From contig CALLNY010000005.1 of NCBI GenBank assembly GCA_938005475.1, positions 5,684 to 69,683 of the forward strand: a DNA stretch of 64,000 nt, given 5' to 3'. The DNA comes from an uncultured Bacteroidia bacterium. GTDB taxonomy: Bacteria > Bacteroidota > Bacteroidia > J057 > CALLMJ01. Position 1 is the stretch's first letter, and each line of letters begins with the position of its first letter. Made by a program: the position numbers and the translations under genes. Below, piece by piece: positions 3,623 to 53,824 of the stretch. The notes beneath the pieces are model-generated. The model made no database searches. It was not told the DNA's origin and saw nothing but the letters and a program-made list of their open reading frames with translations.

Positions 3623-5839
3623 ATGGAGAAAGTGTTTTGGGTTGAGGGAATACATTGCAGTGCTTGTGTTGATGCTATTGAGCAATTATTGAAAGAAAAT
3701 CCCTGTGTCTTACAAGTTCATGTACATTTGGCTGAAAAGAAAGTTTTTTTACAACTTTCTCAGGAAATTTCTTTACAAGAGCTTAATCAATTAGTATCAA
3801 AAGCAGGTTATCAAATTCTTGAATTACAGGAAGATAATAATAATAAATTTAATTTTTTGAGAATTATTTGGTTATTAAGTTTATCCACTTTCCTAATGCT
3901 TTTAGGAATGTTTTCTATGGGCAAACTATGGTCAGAATGGATAATGGCTTTAATATCAGGTATTTTAATTTATGAAGGTAGAAAATTTTATTTAAATGCC
4001 TATAAACAAGCAAAAATAAAAAAAGCTTCTATGGATACATTAGTATCTTTAAGTACTGGAATATCATTTATTTACAGTATAGGATTATTAAGTGTTCAAA
4101 CTTTTTTAAATAATTCTGCATTACACCATTACCATACTCATTTTGAAGCCGCAGGAATGATTATAGCTTTTGTTTTAATCGGAAAATACCTAGAAGATAA
4201 AGTCCAAGCTAGTACTCAAAGGTCTTTAAAGAAAATTTTGACCTATAAAAACAAAAAAGTAACAAAGTGTTTAAACGATGGTAGTTTCGTGGAGATTTTT
4301 GTCAAGGATATTCAACCCAATGATAATATTTTAATTAAGGCAGGAGAACAAATTCCTATTGATGGTATCGTATTAGAAGGAGAAAGTTATGTTGATGAAA
4401 GCATGATGACGGGGGAGCCATTGCCTGCTGAAAAAAAACCTCATAGTAAAGTTTATGCAGGAACGATAAATCAGTACCAAAATATTATAGTGAAAGCAGA
4501 AAAGATAGGTGAGAGCACTTTTTTAGAACAAATACTTAAAGCGGTAGAACGAGCGCAAGCATCAAAGCCTGATATTCAAAAGATAACAGATAAAATAGCA
4601 GGTCAATTTACTTTTTTTATTATTGGAATAAGTTTGCTTACTTTTTTTTTATGGATGTTACAAAATGATTTTGAACATGCTTTTACGTCTATGATAGCGG
4701 TCTTGGTGGTAGCCTGTCCTTGTGCACTTGGTTTAGCTACTCCTATGGCAGTGATTGTAGGAATTGGTAAAGCCGCTCAACACGGTATCTTAATTCAAAA
4801 TGCAAATGCACTTGAAAAAGCAAATCATATCAGCCTAATCGCTTTTGATAAAACAGGTACTCTGACTACTGGAAAACCCAACGTGCAAAAAGTTTTATGG
4901 AACGAAACCCCCAAACCACACTGGCCTTGGCTTTGGTTCAAATTAGCCCAGCAATCTAACCATCCTCTTGCTACTGCAATTCATAATTATTTTTTTTATC
5001 TACTCCAAAACTCCCCACAAGTTTTTTTACAATTTCAAGATGTACAAACTATTGCTGGCAAAGGCATAAAAGCAATTTTAGAAGATAGCATGTACCTTAT
5101 GGGAAATGAAAATTTTTTACAACAGAATGGCATTGTTATACCAGATACCTTAAAAATGTCCCTTGAAGAATACAATCAGCAAGGCAATAGTTTTGTTTTT
5201 TTTGCAAGAAATCAGCATTGCTTAGGCGTTTGTATATTAGCAGATACGCTTCGTCCCGATGTACCCCAAACCATTCAAATACTACAAAAAAAAGGTTATA
5301 AACTTTGTATTTTAAGTGGCGATAATCAAGAGACTGTTAAATTTTATGCCCAACAGTTAGGTATTCAAAATTATGAAGGCGAGTTACTTCCCATGCAAAA
5401 AGCCAAAAAAATAGCAAAATTTGAAGTTAATGGACAAAAAACTTTGATGGTAGGTGATGGAATTAACGACTCCATAGCATTAAGCAAAGCAACTATTAGT
5501 GTTGCCTTTTCATCAGGAAATGAACTTACTTCTAATGTTGCACAAGTCCTACTCATCAAAAACGAAATACATGGTATCCTAAAATTCTTAGAAATTGCTA
5601 AACAAACTCATGCACTTATCTATCAGAATTTATTCTGGGCTTTTATTTATAATTTGCTTATGATACCATTGGCAACAGGACTTTTTTATCCTATTCTAGG
5701 TTGGCGGTTTCATCCTATGTGGGCAAGTATAGCTATGTCTCTAAGTTCTATTAGTATCGTTCTTAACAGCCTCAGATTGAACAATAAATCGCTCTGCAGT
5801 GAAAATATTTACCACAGCGAACCCCATAAACCCGAGTAA
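3623..5839 (+). CDS. copA: Copper-translocating P1B-1 ATPase
   Basis: N-terminal HMA GIHCSAC, TGEP, CPCALGLATP, DKTGTLT, GDGINDS, YN and MSLSS metal-binding TM motifs. Confidence 0.92.
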   Translation: MEKVFWVEGIHCSACVDAIEQLLKENPCVLQVHVHLAEKKVFLQLSQEISLQELNQLVSKAGYQILELQEDNNNKFNFLRIIWLLSLSTFLMLLGMFSMGKLWSEWIMALISGILIYEGRKFYLNAYKQAKIKKASMDTLVSLSTGISFIYSIGLLSVQTFLNNSALHHYHTHFEAAGMIIAFVLIGKYLEDKVQASTQRSLKKILTYKNKKVTKCLNDGSFVEIFVKDIQPNDNILIKAGEQIPIDGIVLEGESYVDESMMTGEPLPAEKKPHSKVYAGTINQYQNIIVKAEKIGESTFLEQILKAVERAQASKPDIQKITDKIAGQFTFFIIGISLLTFFLWMLQNDFEHAFTSMIAVLVVACPCALGLATPMAVIVGIGKAAQHGILIQNANALEKANHISLIAFDKTGTLTTGKPNVQKVLWNETPKPHWPWLWFKLAQQSNHPLATAIHNYFFYLLQNSPQVFLQFQDVQTIAGKGIKAILEDSMYLMGNENFLQQNGIVIPDTLKMSLEEYNQQGNSFVFFARNQHCLGVCILADTLRPDVPQTIQILQKKGYKLCILSGDNQETVKFYAQQLGIQNYEGELLPMQKAKKIAKFEVNGQKTLMVGDGINDSIALSKATISVAFSSGNELTSNVAQVLLIKNEIHGILKFLEIAKQTHALIYQNLFWAFIYNLLMIPLATGLFYPILGWRFHPMWASIAMSLSSISIVLNSLRLNNKSLCSENIYHSEPHKPE

Positions 5840-44493: not shown

Positions 44494-44877
44494 TTATCCA
44501 CATATTTAATAATAAAAAACAGTAAATTGTGAATACAATAAACCTTTTTCATTACAACAAGTAAAAAAATCATCAGCTACCATGAAAATAACCTTATATT
44601 TCCACACTAATACATCCAAAGTTAAATATTTTTGTTAATTAAAATAATCAACATGAATAAAAAAATAAATTTTCACAATTGTGGAAATCTTTTGATAACT
44701 ATCAGTAAAATAAAAATAAAAATTGAGTAGAAATAATAAACTTTGTGGTTTATTTGTTCGTAAAATTATTTACGGGATACCAAGTAGGAGTTTATTAAGA
44801 TACTAACATACCTAATACAACTATAAATATCAGTATTTAAGTAAATATATGAATTTAATTATTATAATAGCATAAAA
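44494..44877. other. oriC: Putative chromosomal replication origin (oriC)
   Basis: Gene-free AT-rich gap with perfect TTATCCACA (44494), near-consensus boxes at 44528, 44598, 44645, 44669, 44680, 44744, a DnaA-trio-like run at 44725-44739, a G/C skew switch, and a parS pair 7 kb away. Confidence 0.75.
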
Positions 44878-47695: not shown

Positions 47696-50600
47696 ATGAT
47701 AGATAAAACTATTTATGATAAATTGAACGAGTTCAGAAAAAGATATTACCTTAATCAGATTGTAAAAGGAGCTGTTTTTACTAGTTTAATATTTCTTGTT
47801 CTTTATGTTTTTTTTGTAACGTTTGAGGGTATTTTCTGGTTTAACTCACTTATTAGAACGACTTTCTTTCTTATATTAGTTGGACTACCTTCTTGGGTTT
47901 TTTATAAAACGCTTCTATTCCCTTTATTGAATTATTTTAATGTTGGAAAAACTTTATCTGATGAACAGGCGGCTCGAATCATCGGTGAGCATTTTCCAGA
48001 AATTTCAGATAAATTATTGAATTATATTCAACTATCTAATTCTAATCAAGCAAATGAAATTATAACACTTGCTATTGAACAAAAGAAATTTAATGTTTTA
48101 CCTTTTGATTTTAAAAAAGTTATAAATTTAAATATAAACTTACGTAAGGCTCGTTTTGTTTTAATTCCTATTCTTTTTTTATTTTTTCTTTTTTTACTTG
48201 CCCCTGAGGTAGTCACAAAAGGAACATACCGTTTAATAAATTTTTCTAAGCCATTTACTCCACCTCCTCCATTTCAAATTAAAGTTTTGAATTTGCCCAC
48301 AAAACTAATTGATAATGAAACCTATACCCTCAATATTGAAGTTGATGGAGAACAGTTGCCTAAAGAACTTTTCTTATATTATAAAGAAATTTATAATTCG
48401 GAATTCCAGCCTTTTATTCTAAAAAAAATATCAAAATCTAAATATCAATACTCTTTTTCTAATATCAACAACGATTTTGAGTTTTCTATTGGTAACGAGT
48501 TATATAAATCTCAGGTTTTTCATGTTGATGTTTTAAAGAGACCATATATCCAAGATTTTGAGATATCTATCAATTATCCTTCTTATACAGGTTTAAAACC
48601 TGAAAAACTAATCCCTAATGTTGGCGATATTTCAGTTTTAAAAGGATCTGTTGTTGAATGGAAGTTAAATGCTAAGGGCAATGTGAAAGAAGCTTTTTTA
48701 GAACTTAATCCTAGAGTCTATTTTAAAGATAATAAAGTAAGCCAACAAATTTTAACTTCACAGTCATATTTTATTCAATTGATTTCGCAAGAAAACTTAT
48801 CTAATTTAGATACGGTCAGATATCAAATACAAGTTATCGAAGATAAATATCCCGAGGTTCAGATTATATCGCCTAGTATGGATTATAACTTACCTAATAA
48901 TGGATTTTTGCCATTAGTTTATGACTTAAATGATGATTATGGTTTTACTACACTGTTACTAAATTATCGTTTTATTAAGTCAAACAATCCTAATAAAATT
49001 TCAAATCAATTTAAATCAAAGGTAATCAATAAACAGTTTAATGGTAATTTTTTAAGGTCTGAGATCAAATTAGATATGTTCGATATTAACATGGAACAAG
49101 GTGATGTTATTGAATATTCCTTAACTGTATTTGATAATGATGCTATTTCGGGTTTCAAGTCATCAACTTCGCAAGTATATAAGGTTAATTATTTGTCAGT
49201 TAATGAATTATACGAAAATAATGAAAAAGTTCAAGAAAAAATTGAAGAAAATTTAGATAATACTTTGAAAAACAATGAACACTTAAACGATAAGTTTGAT
49301 AAAATTCAAAAAAAGCTTATAGAGAATAAAAATTTAGACTATGAGCAAAAAAAAGAAATTCAAGAATTTGTAAAGAATCAACAAAAAATTTTTGAAAATA
49401 TACAGAATTTGAAGGAAGATTTAAATGAAATAAAACAAAACTCCCAAATGAATGAATTGTATAACGAAGAAACGCTTCAAAAAATGGACCAATTACAAAA
49501 TTTGATTAAAGAAATTGAAAATTCCGACCTTAAAAAGCAATTGGATGAATTGCTTAATAAATTGAATAAGAATGATGAGAATCGTTCAATCAAGCAACAA
49601 TTGGAACAAATTCAATATAAACAAGAAAATTTACAATACAATTTAGAACGTATTCAACAATTATACAAGCAATTAAAAGCATATCAAAAAGCTGACGAAA
49701 TTCAAAAGAAATTAGAAGATATTAAGCAACAACAAGAAACTTTAAATCAATTAACTAATGAAAAAAATAATAAAGAAGACTTTAAGAGAATTGCAGAAAA
49801 GGAGAAAGAAATTGAAAATAAGATTAATCAGCTCAAGGAGGATTTAAAAGAATTTGAAAAGTTAAGTAAGGAAGCTGGTAAAAGCATATCAGATAAAATG
49901 AATGATATTCAAAAAACACATCAGGAAATTTTAAGGGATTTACAAAAATCAATTGATCAATTAAATCAAAATCAGAAATTTAATGCTTCTCAAAGTCAGC
50001 ATAATGCTACTAAGAACATGGAAAAGATGCAACAACAAATTTCAGAAATGATGCAAGAAGAAGAATTTGAAGAAAATGCAGAAAATTATGAATCATTACG
50101 GAATTTATTAAAAAATCTTTTAAAGCTTTCATTTACTCAAGAAGAACTTCGTGATAAAACTAAAAAATTAAAATACAGTGATCCTCTTATAAAAAAATAT
50201 CTTGTAGAGCAGAAAAAACTACGTGATAACATGGAAATGGTAAAGGACTCTTTATACGAATTAGCTAAACGAGTTTTTCAAATAAAGAAATATGTTACTG
50301 ATGAAGTTAATATAATCAATCTTCATATGGATAATACTATCACTTATCTATCTAATTTTCAGATACCTAATGCGAATAATTCTCAGCATTATGTTATGAC
50401 AAGTTTGAATAATTTAGCAAATATGTTAACAGAATCTCTAGACCAAATGCAACAACAAATGAAATCTCAGCGAAATCAGAAAGGTGGAGGGGGTTCATGT
50501 AAAAGACCGGGAGGTAATAATTCATCTATGCAAGGATTAGCTAAACAGCAGTCTAAACTTAATCAAATGCTACAAGATATGATGAATCAAGGTGGTCAAG

Positions 50601-51028
50601 ATCCAGCTAAATTAGAACAGATGGCAAAAGAACAAGAGGCTATTAGGTTAGGTTTAAAGGAAATGTATGATAAGATTTCCAAAGAAATAGGAGAGAAAGG
50701 AGGACTAGGCAACATATCTAAAATAATTCAAGATATGGAAGAGACTGAAAAAGAATTATTGAACAAGCAGTTAACTGCTGAATTATTAAAACGTCAACAA
50801 CAGATTCTTTCAAGAATGTTAGATTATGATAAATCTATACGTCAAAGAGATTTAGACAACAAACGTGAATCTAAAACGGGTAGCGATATTTATAGAAATT
50901 TTCCTAGTAATCAATTAGATGTCAATCCCATGATTTTTATAAATCATGAAAATTTAAGTCGTACTAAATATAATTACACCAAACCATTTCAGTTAATGAT
51001 AGATGATTATTTTAATAAGATAAAATAA
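47696..51028 (+). CDS. DUF4175-like membrane-anchored protein with Ig-like and very long coiled-coil region
   Basis: Three N-terminal TM segments, beta-rich middle (DDYGF, DNDAISGFK), Q/E/K-rich coiled coil, C-terminal RQQQILSRMLD. Confidence 0.75.
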   Translation: MIDKTIYDKLNEFRKRYYLNQIVKGAVFTSLIFLVLYVFFVTFEGIFWFNSLIRTTFFLILVGLPSWVFYKTLLFPLLNYFNVGKTLSDEQAARIIGEHFPEISDKLLNYIQLSNSNQANEIITLAIEQKKFNVLPFDFKKVINLNINLRKARFVLIPILFLFFLFLLAPEVVTKGTYRLINFSKPFTPPPPFQIKVLNLPTKLIDNETYTLNIEVDGEQLPKELFLYYKEIYNSEFQPFILKKISKSKYQYSFSNINNDFEFSIGNELYKSQVFHVDVLKRPYIQDFEISINYPSYTGLKPEKLIPNVGDISVLKGSVVEWKLNAKGNVKEAFLELNPRVYFKDNKVSQQILTSQSYFIQLISQENLSNLDTVRYQIQVIEDKYPEVQIISPSMDYNLPNNGFLPLVYDLNDDYGFTTLLLNYRFIKSNNPNKISNQFKSKVINKQFNGNFLRSEIKLDMFDINMEQGDVIEYSLTVFDNDAISGFKSSTSQVYKVNYLSVNELYENNEKVQEKIEENLDNTLKNNEHLNDKFDKIQKKLIENKNLDYEQKKEIQEFVKNQQKIFENIQNLKEDLNEIKQNSQMNELYNEETLQKMDQLQNLIKEIENSDLKKQLDELLNKLNKNDENRSIKQQLEQIQYKQENLQYNLERIQQLYKQLKAYQKADEIQKKLEDIKQQQETLNQLTNEKNNKEDFKRIAEKEKEIENKINQLKEDLKEFEKLSKEAGKSISDKMNDIQKTHQEILRDLQKSIDQLNQNQKFNASQSQHNATKNMEKMQQQISEMMQEEEFEENAENYESLRNLLKNLLKLSFTQEELRDKTKKLKYSDPLIKKYLVEQKKLRDNMEMVKDSLYELAKRVFQIKKYVTDEVNIINLHMDNTITYLSNFQIPNANNSQHYVMTSLNNLANMLTESLDQMQQQMKSQRNQKGGGGSCKRPGGNNSSMQGLAKQQSKLNQMLQDMMNQGGQDPAKLEQMAKEQEAIRLGLKEMYDKISKEIGEKGGLGNISKIIQDMEETEKELLNKQLTAELLKRQQQILSRMLDYDKSIRQRDLDNKRESKTGSDIYRNFPSNQLDVNPMIFINHENLSRTKYNYTKPFQLMIDDYFNKIK

Positions 51029-51032
51029 TATT

Positions 51033-51449
51033 ATGCTAACTATAAGTAATTATTTCCAAGAAATTAATATTCCTTCTGATATAAATGAGTTGTTTAGCGT
51101 TGAAGTTTTTTTAGAGCGAATAAAGGATGATTTAAATTTATCAGAAAATATATTTGCTAATATTATAATTAGTGTAACAGAGGCTGTTAATAATGCAATT
51201 ATTCATGGTAATAAGAATGATATAACTAAGAAGGTTACAATAACTGCTAAGTTGAGTGATGCACATACTTTATCGATTTTTGTTAAAGATAATGGTGATG
51301 GTTTTGATATAAATTCTTTAAAAGATCCTACTTTAATAGAGAATATTTTTTATGAGAGTGGTAGAGGTGTTTTTGTCATGAAGCATTTATCTGATGATAT
51401 GTTGTATCATGATAATGGTTCTTTATTGGAATTAAAATTCAAGTTATGA
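51033..51449 (+). CDS. RsbW-like HATPase (anti-sigma / Ser-Thr kinase fold)
   Basis: SVTEAVNNAIIHGN, VKDNGDGFD, DPT..EN..ESGRGVFVMKHLSD. Confidence 0.88.
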   Translation: MLTISNYFQEINIPSDINELFSVEVFLERIKDDLNLSENIFANIIISVTEAVNNAIIHGNKNDITKKVTITAKLSDAHTLSIFVKDNGDGFDINSLKDPTLIENIFYESGRGVFVMKHLSDDMLYHDNGSLLELKFKL

Positions 51450-51898
51450 TTTCATATAGTTATACCCAAAAGCCTTTTTTTCTAAGCAATAATTTTAAGA
51501 AAATATTTAAAAATGTTGTTAACAAGCTATGTAGTGATTATAATTTTCGTTTGAAAAGGATACATTATCATTTTTGTGATGATGAATACTTATTAAAAAT
51601 GAATTATGAGGTATTAAACCATGATTATTATACTGATATAATCACATTTGATTATACAACTGAAAATAAGTTAGAAGCAGAGATGTTTATTAGTTTAGAT
51701 AGAGTTACGGAAAATTCTGTCATTTATAATCAAACTTTTTTGGATGAATTAGTCAGAGTCATGATACATGGTCTTTTGCATTGCATTGGTTTTGGTGATA
51801 GTACCGATGTAGAAAAAAATGAAATACGCAAATTAGAGGATAATTATTTAAATTTTTTTAATTTGTATAATGTTCCACGTGGAACGTTATATTTATAA
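51446..51898 (+). CDS. ybeY: rRNA maturation endoribonuclease YbeY
   Basis: LNHDYYTDIITF, ISLDRV, RVMIHGLLHCIG. Confidence 0.92.
   Translation: MISYSYTQKPFFLSNNFKKIFKNVVNKLCSDYNFRLKRIHYHFCDDEYLLKMNYEVLNHDYYTDIITFDYTTENKLEAEMFISLDRVTENSVIYNQTFLDELVRVMIHGLLHCIGFGDSTDVEKNEIRKLEDNYLNFFNLYNVPRGTLYL
51871..51886. promoter_or_regulatory. parS: parS centromere-like site 1 (inside ybeY 3' end)
   Basis: TGTTCCACGTGGAACG: perfect 14-bp palindrome GTTCCACGTGGAAC matching the universal parS consensus. Confidence 0.9.
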
Positions 51899-51908
51899 TT
51901 TATTTTTA

Positions 51909-51924
51909 TGTTCCACGTGGAACT
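51909..51924. promoter_or_regulatory. parS: parS centromere-like site 2 (ybeY-mnmG gap)
   Basis: TGTTCCACGTGGAACT, same palindromic core, 38 bp from site 1. Confidence 0.9.
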
Positions 51925-51952
51925 GTTATGATAGATAAAAATAAAAAAGGAT

Positions 51953-53824
51953 ATGCAAGAAATTTATGATGTTATAGTAGTTGGTGCAGGGCATGCGGGT
52001 TGTGAAGCCGCAGCTGCCGCCGCAAATATGGATTGTAAAGTTTTATTGATAACCATGAACATGACCACTATTGCTCAGATGTCTTGTAATCCTGCTATGG
52101 GTGGAGTAGGAAAAGGTCAAATCATTAGAGAAATTGATGCATTAGGTGGCTATTCTGGAATAGTGTCCGATAAAACTGCTCTTCAATTTAGAATGCTTAA
52201 TAAATCCAAAGGTCCAGCTATGTGGAGCCCCAGAACTCAAAATGATAGACTGAAGTTCTCCGAAGAATGGCGATATATACTTGAAAATATTCCTAATTTG
52301 GACTTCTGGCAAGATATGGTACCTAAAATTATTGTAAAAAATAAAACTGCTAAAGGTGTAGTTACCGCTATGGGAAAAGAATTCTATTCAAAAACTGTTA
52401 TTTTAACTAATGGTACCTTCTTAAATGGTATTATTCATATCGGTGATAAACAATTCTCTGGTGGTCGATCAGGAGAAAGAGCCGCAAAAGGGCTTACAGA
52501 ACAATTAAATGAACTTGGATTTGAATCCGGTAGAATGAAAACAGGCACGCCCCCAAGAATTGATGGAAGAACTATCAATTACTCTCAAACCGAAATTCAA
52601 GAAGGTGATAAACCTAAAAAAACATTCTCCTTTAATATTGATTACTATGATTTAGAAATGAAACAATTACCTTGCTATATTACCTATACTAATCCCAAAG
52701 TTCATGAAATCTTAAAAAAAGGATTTAATAAATCTCCCCTTCTTACTGGCAAAATTAAAGGAGTAGGACCAAGATATTGCCCATCTATTGAGGACAAAAT
52801 CGTTCGTTTTGAAGAAAGAGATAGACATCAACTTTTTATTGAACCTGAAGGATGGAAAACCCATGAAATTTACTTGAACGGATTCTCTTCTTCCCTACCC
52901 GAAGAAATACAATATGAAGCCTTAAGACATATACCCGGACTTGAAAACGCTAAAATGTTTAGACCAGGTTATGCTATTGAATATGACTTTTTCCCTCCTT
53001 ATCAATTAGAACTAACCCTAGAAACCAAATTGATTAGAAATTTATTTTTTGCAGGACAAATTAACGGTACCACTGGATATGAAGAAGCCGCTGCACAAGG
53101 TATTATGGCTGGAATAAATGCCGCATTACGTGTAAAAGACTCTGAACCCCTGATTCTTAGAAGAGACCAAGCTTATATCGGTGTACTCATTGACGATCTT
53201 GTTACTAAAGGTACTGATGAACCTTACCGTATGTTTACTTCTCGTGCTGAATATAGAATCCTTTTAAGACAAGATAACGCCGATAGACGCCTTACTGAAA
53301 TTGGTTACAAAATTGGGCTCGCCTCTGAAGAAAGATATCAAAATTTAAAGAAAAAAGAAAAAGAAATCAATGAAATTATTCAACTTTTAGATAGTGTAAT
53401 GGTTGAACCTGAAAGTGCTAATGAAATTTTGGAATTTAAAGGTGAACAACCTATTCAAACTAAACAAAAAGCTTCACACCTTTTACTTAGACCTAATATT
53501 AATATGGAATACCTGCGTTTTATGGACTCCAAACGCATCTCCTATCCCTTAGTTTATTATTCTATTGAAGCAATTAAAGCCGCTGAAATTGAAATAAAAT
53601 ATAGAGGTTATATTGAAAAAGAACTTCAATTAGTAGAAAAAATGAAAAAATTAGAAAATATAACTTTGCCTGAAAATTTGAAATATGAAAATTGTCATGG
53701 CCTTTCTAATGAAGCAAAACAAAAATTATCAAAAGTAAAACCCAAAACTATTGGACAAGCTTCTCGTATTAGCGGTGTTACTCCTGCTGATATATCTGCA
53801 TTGCTAATCTTCATTGGTCGTTAA
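51953..53824 (+). CDS. mnmG: tRNA uridine-5-carboxymethylaminomethyl modification enzyme GidA
   Basis: VVGAGHAGCEAA, MSCNPAMGG, RMLNKSKGPA, KTGTPPRID, GPRYCPSIEDK, GQINGTTGYEEAAAQG. Confidence 0.98.
   Translation: MQEIYDVIVVGAGHAGCEAAAAAANMDCKVLLITMNMTTIAQMSCNPAMGGVGKGQIIREIDALGGYSGIVSDKTALQFRMLNKSKGPAMWSPRTQNDRLKFSEEWRYILENIPNLDFWQDMVPKIIVKNKTAKGVVTAMGKEFYSKTVILTNGTFLNGIIHIGDKQFSGGRSGERAAKGLTEQLNELGFESGRMKTGTPPRIDGRTINYSQTEIQEGDKPKKTFSFNIDYYDLEMKQLPCYITYTNPKVHEILKKGFNKSPLLTGKIKGVGPRYCPSIEDKIVRFEERDRHQLFIEPEGWKTHEIYLNGFSSSLPEEIQYEALRHIPGLENAKMFRPGYAIEYDFFPPYQLELTLETKLIRNLFFAGQINGTTGYEEAAAQGIMAGINAALRVKDSEPLILRRDQAYIGVLIDDLVTKGTDEPYRMFTSRAEYRILLRQDNADRRLTEIGYKIGLASEERYQNLKKKEKEINEIIQLLDSVMVEPESANEILEFKGEQPIQTKQKASHLLLRPNINMEYLRFMDSKRISYPLVYYSIEAIKAAEIEIKYRGYIEKELQLVEKMKKLENITLPENLKYENCHGLSNEAKQKLSKVKPKTIGQASRISGVTPADISALLIFIGR

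Follow-up and report, generated by a model that had tools for sequence, protein, structure and literature searches.

Why does the short stretch between the genes ybeY and mnmG in the genome of an uncultured Bacteroidia bacterium (GTDB lineage J057; CALLMJ01) carry the same palindrome twice? Two identical palindromes so close to each other could represent a centromere, an operator of the adjacent gene, a hairpin that acts in the transcript, or the binding sites of some other regulator. The locus lies in a stretch of 64,000 nucleotides (hereafter the window), which comprises positions 5,684 to 69,683 of contig CALLNY010000005.1 (C5) of the assembly GCA_938005475.1 (2.63 Mb in 105 contigs, 33.8% G+C, 100% complete, 0.26% contamination). 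The sequence of the sites, the proteins encoded in the same genome, and the conservation of the locus among relatives indicate that the two palindromes are very probably the parS sites of the chromosome, that is, the centromere at which a canonical ParABS system nucleates.

A search of the window located the 14-mer GTTCCACGTGGAAC at two positions with starts that are 38 bp apart (Table 1), and no third copy was present in the window at up to 2 mismatches. The number of matches expected by chance at this tolerance is 0.02, and two matches occurred in none of 100 shuffled versions of the window. Across the pair, the order of the letters is ...TATAA TGTTCCACGTGGAACG TTATATTTATAATTTATTTTTA TGTTCCACGTGGAACT GTTATG..., and both cores consist of the half-sites GTTCCAC and GTGGAAC. 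The palindromes match the parS criterion tGTTNCACGTGNAACa, and each 7-bp half-site has a G at position 1 and an A at position 6 (numbering of half-site positions after PMC7383237).

In a scan of the entire genome (2.63 Mb), no site other than the pair matched the 16-bp palindrome TGTTCCACGTGGAACA with up to 2 mismatches. The same two sites are also the closest matches in the assembly to the form known from Bacillus subtilis (TGTTCCACGTGAAACA), from which they differ by 2 mismatches. Matches with 3 mismatches are scattered over the genome, lack the core, and resemble noise. The possibility that the palindrome represents a dispersed repeat or a mobile element was rejected because the genome holds only two copies. 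An earlier interpretation of the same DNA made without database searches (the sequence-only reading) had described two copies at a distance of 38 bp, the first encoding the tail NVPRGT of YbeY and the second located in the 54-bp gap before mnmG, and had proposed a genome-wide scan for parS. Its description agrees with the exact search, with the translation of the open reading frame (ORF), and with the extent of the gap (51899-51952), and the scan left the pair without competitors.

Table 1. Coordinates of the palindromes, the adjacent genes, and the predicted origin in the window.
Feature	Position	Strand	Description
parS-1	51871..51886	none	TGTTCCACGTGGAACG; perfect 14-bp core at 51872-51885; overlaps the last ybeY codons (N V P R G T)
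parS-2	51909..51924	none	TGTTCCACGTGGAACT; perfect 14-bp core at 51910-51923; in the 54-bp ybeY-mnmG gap
ybeY	51446..51898	+	rRNA maturation RNase; TIGR00043, 74 bits against a cut-off of 45, residues 20-140
mnmG (gidA)	51953..53824	+	TIGR00136, 868 bits; 5' flank carries parS across Bacteroidota
Probable oriC	44494..44877	none	384-bp gap with 20% G+C before nadA; context, not part of parS

A protein suited to such sites is encoded on a different contig. The genome has a single match to ParB_N (127 bits), which is located on contig C73, and the window therefore contains no parB. The sequence-only reading had already reported that parAB are absent from the window, and had held that its interpretation required a parB elsewhere in the genome; the search for parAB that it had suggested recovered one parA-parB operon on C73. 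In this operon, parB is immediately preceded by the gene of a 263-aa ATPase of the ParA family (Walker-type partition/MinD superfamily); the other neighbor of parB encodes a homolog of the CCA-adding enzyme. The ParB protein (295 aa; 187 bits with TIGR00180) possesses the CTP box GERRFRAA and aligns with ParB/Spo0J structures from Myxococcus xanthus, B. subtilis, Thermus thermophilus, Caulobacter crescentus, and Helicobacter pylori (7BNK, 6SDK, 1VZ0, 6T1F, and 4UMK) with E values of 1e-47 to 1e-54. The Noc model TIGR04285 assigns it a score of 245 bits, which is under the cut-off of 315 bits.

The specificity of ParB and Noc is set by four residues (PMC7383237). R173 and G201 (Caulobacter numbering) are invariant among ParB orthologs, whereas Noc has Q and R; these two residues read the half-site at positions 1 and 6, where parS has G and A and the Noc-binding site (NBS) has A and C (PMC7383237). 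In the helix-turn-helix region, the ParB of the genome reads GKKR...MGHARA, which resembles the ParB of M. xanthus (GKER...MGHARA) and the Spo0J of T. thermophilus (GKAR...AGHARA), whereas the Noc of B. subtilis reads GKGQ...ERHARA. Because Arg and Gly stand where Noc has Gln and Arg, the protein belongs to the R...G class that reads parS.

The genome also encodes full-length versions of all three Smc-ScpAB proteins; Smc (in a frame of 1212 aa) scored 974 bits, and ScpA and ScpB scored 89.5 and 177.6 bits. The dnaA gene is located on contig C22, apart from both the contig with parAB and the contig with the palindromes. The models of ScpA and ScpB that match this genome had no match in Bacteroides thetaiotaomicron, which served as a control, and gut Bacteroides have been reported to be without recognizable condensin subunits (PMC10197239). 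Because of the missing matches in the control, Smc-ScpAB is not uniformly present across Bacteroidota.

There is abundant evidence for a conservation of the sites in related genomes. A degenerate version of the 16-mer was matched in 38 of 40 genomes of the same order, whereas a control pattern mostly yielded zero or one match. Most of the loci fetched from this order have two or three copies of TGTTCCACGTGGAACA that are tens to a few hundred base pairs apart. The gene neighborhood was compared in 29 parS loci of the same order (L003-L032, minus the window's own L005) by tblastn with the proteins of the window. The sites are adjoined by ybeY and/or mnmG at 26 of these loci, and ybeY is 0.5 kb away at two more; one locus (L003) shows neither ybeY nor mnmG. 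The usual gene order comprises a 1110-aa protein, an RsbW-like protein, ybeY, parS, and mnmG. When the loci are placed side by side, the 16-mers are unchanged, whereas no alignment of spacers and flanks is possible, not even with a genome of the same genus. This contrast is a classic phylogenetic footprint, of the kind left by a binding protein.

The same trend is present at the level of the phylum. At least one site was found in 145 of 151 genomes of an even sample of Bacteroidota, most often two sites, and the control pattern again mostly gave zero or one match. A parS-like site is present within 300 bp upstream of mnmG in 43 of 80 loci of the phylum, or in 43 of 65 if Saprospiraceae are omitted. 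The 80 named mnmG loci of this comparison also assign the organism to Bacteroidota. The arrangement occurs in Cytophagales (13 of 17 loci), Flavobacteriales (9 of 11), Sphingobacteriales (5 of 6), and Chitinophagaceae (9 of 17) and is absent from Saprospiraceae (0 of 15). Neither parS nor ybeY was found beside mnmG in any of the 15 loci of Saprospiraceae (among L037-L091), and their centromere must therefore lie elsewhere.

The survey of the phylum yielded several additional observations. In Flavobacteriales, an extra parS is located within about 300 bp after the stop codon of mnmG in 7 of 11 loci (L040, L065, L081, L098, L102, L103, and L112), so that mnmG is bracketed by sites. Of 51 pairs of neighboring parS sites, 13 have a center-to-center distance of 35-39 bp and 11 one of 46-48 bp, which are the two peaks of the distribution. 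The pairs derive from 109 mnmG-region loci of relatives (L003-L004 and L006-L112) and the window's own L005, a small sample of related genomes in which the pairs are not independent of each other. The step of about 10 bp between the two peaks could reflect helical phasing. In a phylogenetic tree of MnmG, the genus of the window joins metagenome-assembled genomes (MAGs) of Bacteroidia, and the families of the same order that have large genomes adjoin Saprospiraceae; as a single-gene tree, it does not settle the taxonomic order of the genus. Four MAGs titled as members of Pseudomonadota (Limnohabitans, Comamonas, and Rhodanobacter; L033, L043, L076, and L084) have ybeY-parS-mnmG loci of the Bacteroidota type. 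Because these loci nest within clades of Cytophagales or Chitinophagales in the MnmG tree, the bins are probably mislabeled or contaminated.

The overlap of parS-1 with ybeY raises the question of whether the palindrome is conserved for the peptide that it encodes. The translation of ybeY ends with ...NLYNVPRGTLYL before the stop codon. The conserved domain of YbeY stops near residue 140 of 150, and it is the tail of 9-10 residues (YNVPRGTLYL) that crosses parS-1. The comparison of YbeY C-termini that the sequence-only reading had suggested was carried out on 75 orthologous loci; the peptide tail is not conserved, whereas the DNA of parS is. In the commonest layout, the stop codon abuts the site and parS follows 1-5 nt later. 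An apparent overlap of ORF and site occurs in about 20 of the 75 loci, several of which are artifacts in which the alignment continues past stop codons. Where the overlap is clean, the palindrome is translated either as VPRGT (in the genus of the window and in several genomes of the same order) or, in a different frame, as FHVK/FHVE. The overlap with ybeY, although real, is incidental and set by the position of the stop codon. The constraint at the end of ybeY acts on the DNA and not on the peptide, which varies.

If the pair is a centromere, it should lie close to the origin of replication. The window contains a candidate in the AT-rich gap before nadA (Table 1), which harbors one perfect DnaA box and six boxes with 2 mismatches. 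Its count of DnaA-like boxes places it among the top 0.18% of 384-bp windows genome-wide. At 1 mismatch or less, only the perfect box remains, and the case for an origin therefore relied on the background count at 2 mismatches and on synteny. The GC skew per kb goes from about -0.2 to positive values at the gap, and the distance from its right edge to the start of parS-1 is 6,994 bp. In nine relatives of the same order, the densest cluster of DnaA boxes within the sequence fetched is found 6.4-7.8 kb upstream of parS, immediately ahead of (nadA-)thiL-xth. It comprises 4-10 boxes (1 mismatch or less) in eight of the nine relatives and only 2 in the remaining one (L172), and the sign of the local skew changes at the cluster. 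The gap in the window is syntenic with these clusters and is probably the oriC of the chromosome, at a location that is not beside dnaA.

Complete chromosomes of relatives provide a view of the same arrangement in its full context. In a same-order relative with a chromosome of 7.54 Mb (G033), the skew, sampled in blocks of 20 kb, has negative values between 0.2 and 3.78 Mb and positive ones between 3.784 and 7.5 Mb, and its sign flips between positions 3,786,000 and 3,788,000. The DnaA boxes of this genome (1 mismatch or less) cluster at 3,786,431-3,787,413, with three perfect copies of TTATCCACA and eight boxes within about 500 bp, and its parS pair (3,794,367-3,794,429) is located 7 kb to the right of the cluster. 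The dnaA gene of G033 (25-1431) is located on the opposite skew switch, near position 0, and parB lies at 1.44 Mb. In a complete chromosome of Parvicellaceae (G041, 4.38 Mb), the skew switches from negative to positive somewhere between 0.82 and 0.88 Mb, the positions of two sampled blocks. Both mnmG and parS are located at 0.934 Mb, which is 50-110 kb from the switch at this coarse sampling. Again, dnaA (3.133 Mb) lies beside the opposite switch (3.0-3.1 Mb), and parB is at 2.26 Mb.

The location of dnaA and parB in these and other relatives is an observation in its own right. G033 and G041 are distantly related, and in both genomes dnaA is found at the skew switch on the terminus side, roughly opposite oriC and parS. 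In two genomes of Cyclobacteriaceae, dnaA is 0.65-0.72 Mb from parS, and the distance between parB and parS in relatives is 1.3-2.4 Mb. Chromosome conformation capture (Hi-C) of Bacteroides caecimuris places a parS cluster at the origin, and the origin need not coincide with dnaA (PMC10197239); nothing specific was found in the literature on dnaA-unlinked origins in Bacteroidota. Between the probable oriC and parS, the window encodes the 1110-aa protein and a 138-aa HATPase protein similar to RsbW/SpoIIAB (47696-51449). Both proteins hold the same position across the order and also in loci of Cytophagales and Flavobacteriales.

Judged by their sequence, the two sites have every property expected of chromosomal parS. 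They are palindromes with G1 and A6 in each half-site, they are rare, and the genome encodes a cognate ParB with an adjacent ATPase of the ParA family. They are close to the predicted origin and conserved at orthologous positions amid diverging non-coding DNA. The assignment made by the sequence-only reading, a parS centromere near the origin, is supported by the uniqueness of the pair in the genome, the specificity residues of ParB, the presence of Smc-ScpAB, the conservation of the locus, and the oriC-like cluster of DnaA boxes with a skew switch about 7 kb upstream, seen in relatives and at the syntenic place in the window.

The comparison with well-studied systems reveals both shared and deviating features. 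In Pseudomonas aeruginosa, the parS cluster lies beside gidAB-parAB and the dnaA region. The sites parS1-parS4 of this species (TGTTCCACGTGGAACA type) share with the pair the GTTCCAC variant of the half-site and the tight clustering near oriC; moreover, some of them are intergenic and located just upstream of genes, and gidA is part of the origin region. Both GTTCCAC and GTTTCAC are named as half-sites bound by ParB (PMC7022226). By contrast, the genome of the window has parAB on another contig, dnaA on a third, and only two sites; in complete genomes of relatives, parAB and dnaA are 1.3-3.8 Mb away from parS. Also in Caulobacter, parS adjoins parAB. The ParB-parS system of C. crescentus (6T1F and 6S6H) resembles that of the present genome in the ParB protein (E value of 1e-49, with R173 and G201 kept) and in the position of parS a few kilobases from the origin, but differs in that parAB and parS are unlinked here.

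The first parS of B. subtilis was found inside spo0J, which is a long-standing precedent for a parS in a coding sequence. The Spo0J/parS system of this species (TGTTNCACGTGAAACA) has in common with the present one a 16-bp palindrome, a ParB with a CTP-binding N-terminal domain, and Smc-ScpAB. B. subtilis has about ten parS sites across the origin-proximal region (PMC7022226), whereas the genome of the window has a single pair 38 bp apart and no Noc paralog. The ybeY-parS-mnmG loci of other Bacteroidota agree with the window in both position and sequence of the sites, which applies to relatives in the same order, Cytophagales, Chitinophagaceae, Sphingobacteriales, and Flavobacteriales; they differ in that parS-1 lies inside the ybeY ORF in the genus of the window, whereas the ybeY of most relatives stops 1-5 nt earlier. 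The departure from the textbook layout is one of linkage: oriC, ybeY, and mnmG are beside the sites, and parAB and dnaA are not.

Binding and spreading of ParB, loading of Smc, and segregation can be proposed for the pair by analogy with the established mechanism of ParB. A dimer of the single ParB would recognize each 14-bp core via its helix-turn-helix, with Arg and Gly reading G1 and A6. Binding of CTP at the GERRFRAA box would close the ParB clamp, which would then slide onto the flanking DNA. With repeated loading of ParB at this pair of sites, spaced by 38 bp, a partition complex several kilobases wide would build up and would probably extend to the origin 7 kb upstream. ParA would then segregate the origin region, and Smc-ScpAB would be loaded and align the arms of the chromosome.

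Four points weigh against the assignment of the pair as the centromere. First, the outermost base of both sites is G or T, where the full 16-bp palindrome has A; this position lies outside the 14-bp core and is the least conserved among 155 sites across the phylum. Second, with an assembly of 105 contigs, an additional parS could be located in one of the assembly gaps. Third, the distance between parS and oriC is measured from a predicted origin with one perfect DnaA box. Fourth, the OMM12 Hi-C study (PMC10197239) was the only relevant paper in the literature on ParABS of Bacteroidota, and no experimental study of the system in this phylum was found.

A centromere does not preclude an additional role, and the proximity of the pair to mnmG suggests that it might also regulate this gene in cis. 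ParB bound or loaded at either site would cover the promoter or obstruct RNA polymerase, which would tie the expression of mnmG to the occupancy of the sites by ParB. Because parS-2 ends 28 nt before the ATG of mnmG, any promoter dedicated to this gene must overlap or precede the sites. In about ten relatives (L013, L014, L015, L032, L040, L060, L067, L085, L097, and L112), a consensus Bacteroidota -7 box (TAnnTTTG) occurs within ybeY or at its end and begins 17-23 nt before the first parS, which would put parS just after the start of transcription. Moreover, ParB represses the genes adjacent to the intergenic sites parS3 and parS4 of P. aeruginosa (PMC7022226). By contrast, the region of the window has no exact TAnnTTTG box, and mnmG may be co-transcribed with the tightly packed genes upstream. 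In many other relatives, the consensus -7 box follows the last parS and lies 12-66 nt ahead of the ATG, which places the sites upstream of the promoter; for this reason, a roadblock by ParB is not a conserved feature. In B. subtilis, the loss of Spo0J alters the expression of few genes. None of the genes affected by the loss of ParB in Streptococcus pneumoniae is located near parS (PMC7022226). Regulation of mnmG in addition to partitioning is therefore doubtful, and repression by ParB is speculative and not supported as a conserved feature.

A more elaborate interpretation combines several of these elements. In Bacteroidota, the centromere would be fixed at the junction of ybeY and mnmG, next to an origin without linkage to dnaA and parAB, the pair would double as an operator or terminator, and the spacing of the sites would represent a helical-phase requirement. 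The operator or terminator may then couple the expression of mnmG and the read-out of the origin-side operon to the loading of ParB, and hence to the cell cycle, and the spacings of 35-39 and 46-48 bp may serve the loading of two ParB clamps. The evidence covers the conserved placement and the spacing peaks, and the combination as a whole appears improbable.

The palindromes might instead act mainly as RNA, either as a long hairpin or, in the case of parS-1 and its T-rich tail, as an intrinsic terminator, which would end the transcript of ybeY or attenuate read-through into mnmG. The RNA of positions 51855-51945 folds with -31.5 kcal/mol (z = -7.2 relative to shuffled sequences), a scan for terminators flagged positions 51865-51892 together with the T-rich tail (0.2 such matches are expected), and the location of parS 1-5 nt after the stop codon of ybeY in many relatives resembles that of a terminator. 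However, a strong fold follows from the sequence itself, as identical palindromes always pair with one another, and a single site folds only to a stem of 5-6 bp. There is no covariation, as the 14-bp core is fixed letter for letter across orders, whereas the spacing varies from 24 to more than 100 bp and the number of copies from 1 to 7. With the sequence fixed, a constraint on the stem of a terminator would look the same as one on parS. A search against Rfam gave no match above noise, merely hairpin-like matches below the threshold to models of eukaryotic miRNAs, and the sequence is the exact consensus of ParB. A function that is primarily at the RNA level is very unlikely, whereas a side effect of the parS hairpin on read-through is possible.

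The weakest alternative, that the sites are decayed relics or are bound by a Noc-like paralog or another regulator that recognizes CACGTG, has no specific support apart from the score of ParB with the Noc model and is extremely unlikely, because that score is below the cut-off, the genome has a single gene of the ParB family with R and G instead of Q and R at the specificity positions, G1 and A6 are of the parS and not the NBS type, and relics would not be perfectly conserved across the phylum. A Noc-binding site proper (tATTTCCCGGGAAATa type, with A1 and C6) was rejected on the same grounds, and also does not fit a member of Bacteroidota, as such sites, together with the Noc protein, occur only in Firmicutes.

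The interpretation of the pair as parS sites places the locus among centromeres of a well-known type. On the present sequence evidence, the pair appears to be a genuine, conserved chromosomal centromere, at a locus that is shared by much of the Bacteroidota. It reveals no new mechanism, in a phylum whose ParABS systems have hardly been studied experimentally. The pair marks the partition locus of an assembly that is otherwise unanchored in its 105 contigs and, combined with the AT-rich gap located 7 kb upstream, also its replication origin, which helps to orient contigs, to read estimates of growth rate that are based on coverage, and to plan Hi-C or chromatin immunoprecipitation (ChIP) of ParB. 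The organism thereby adds one more case to a rule that holds across the phylum: oriC, parS, and mnmG remain linked, whereas dnaA and parAB change position.

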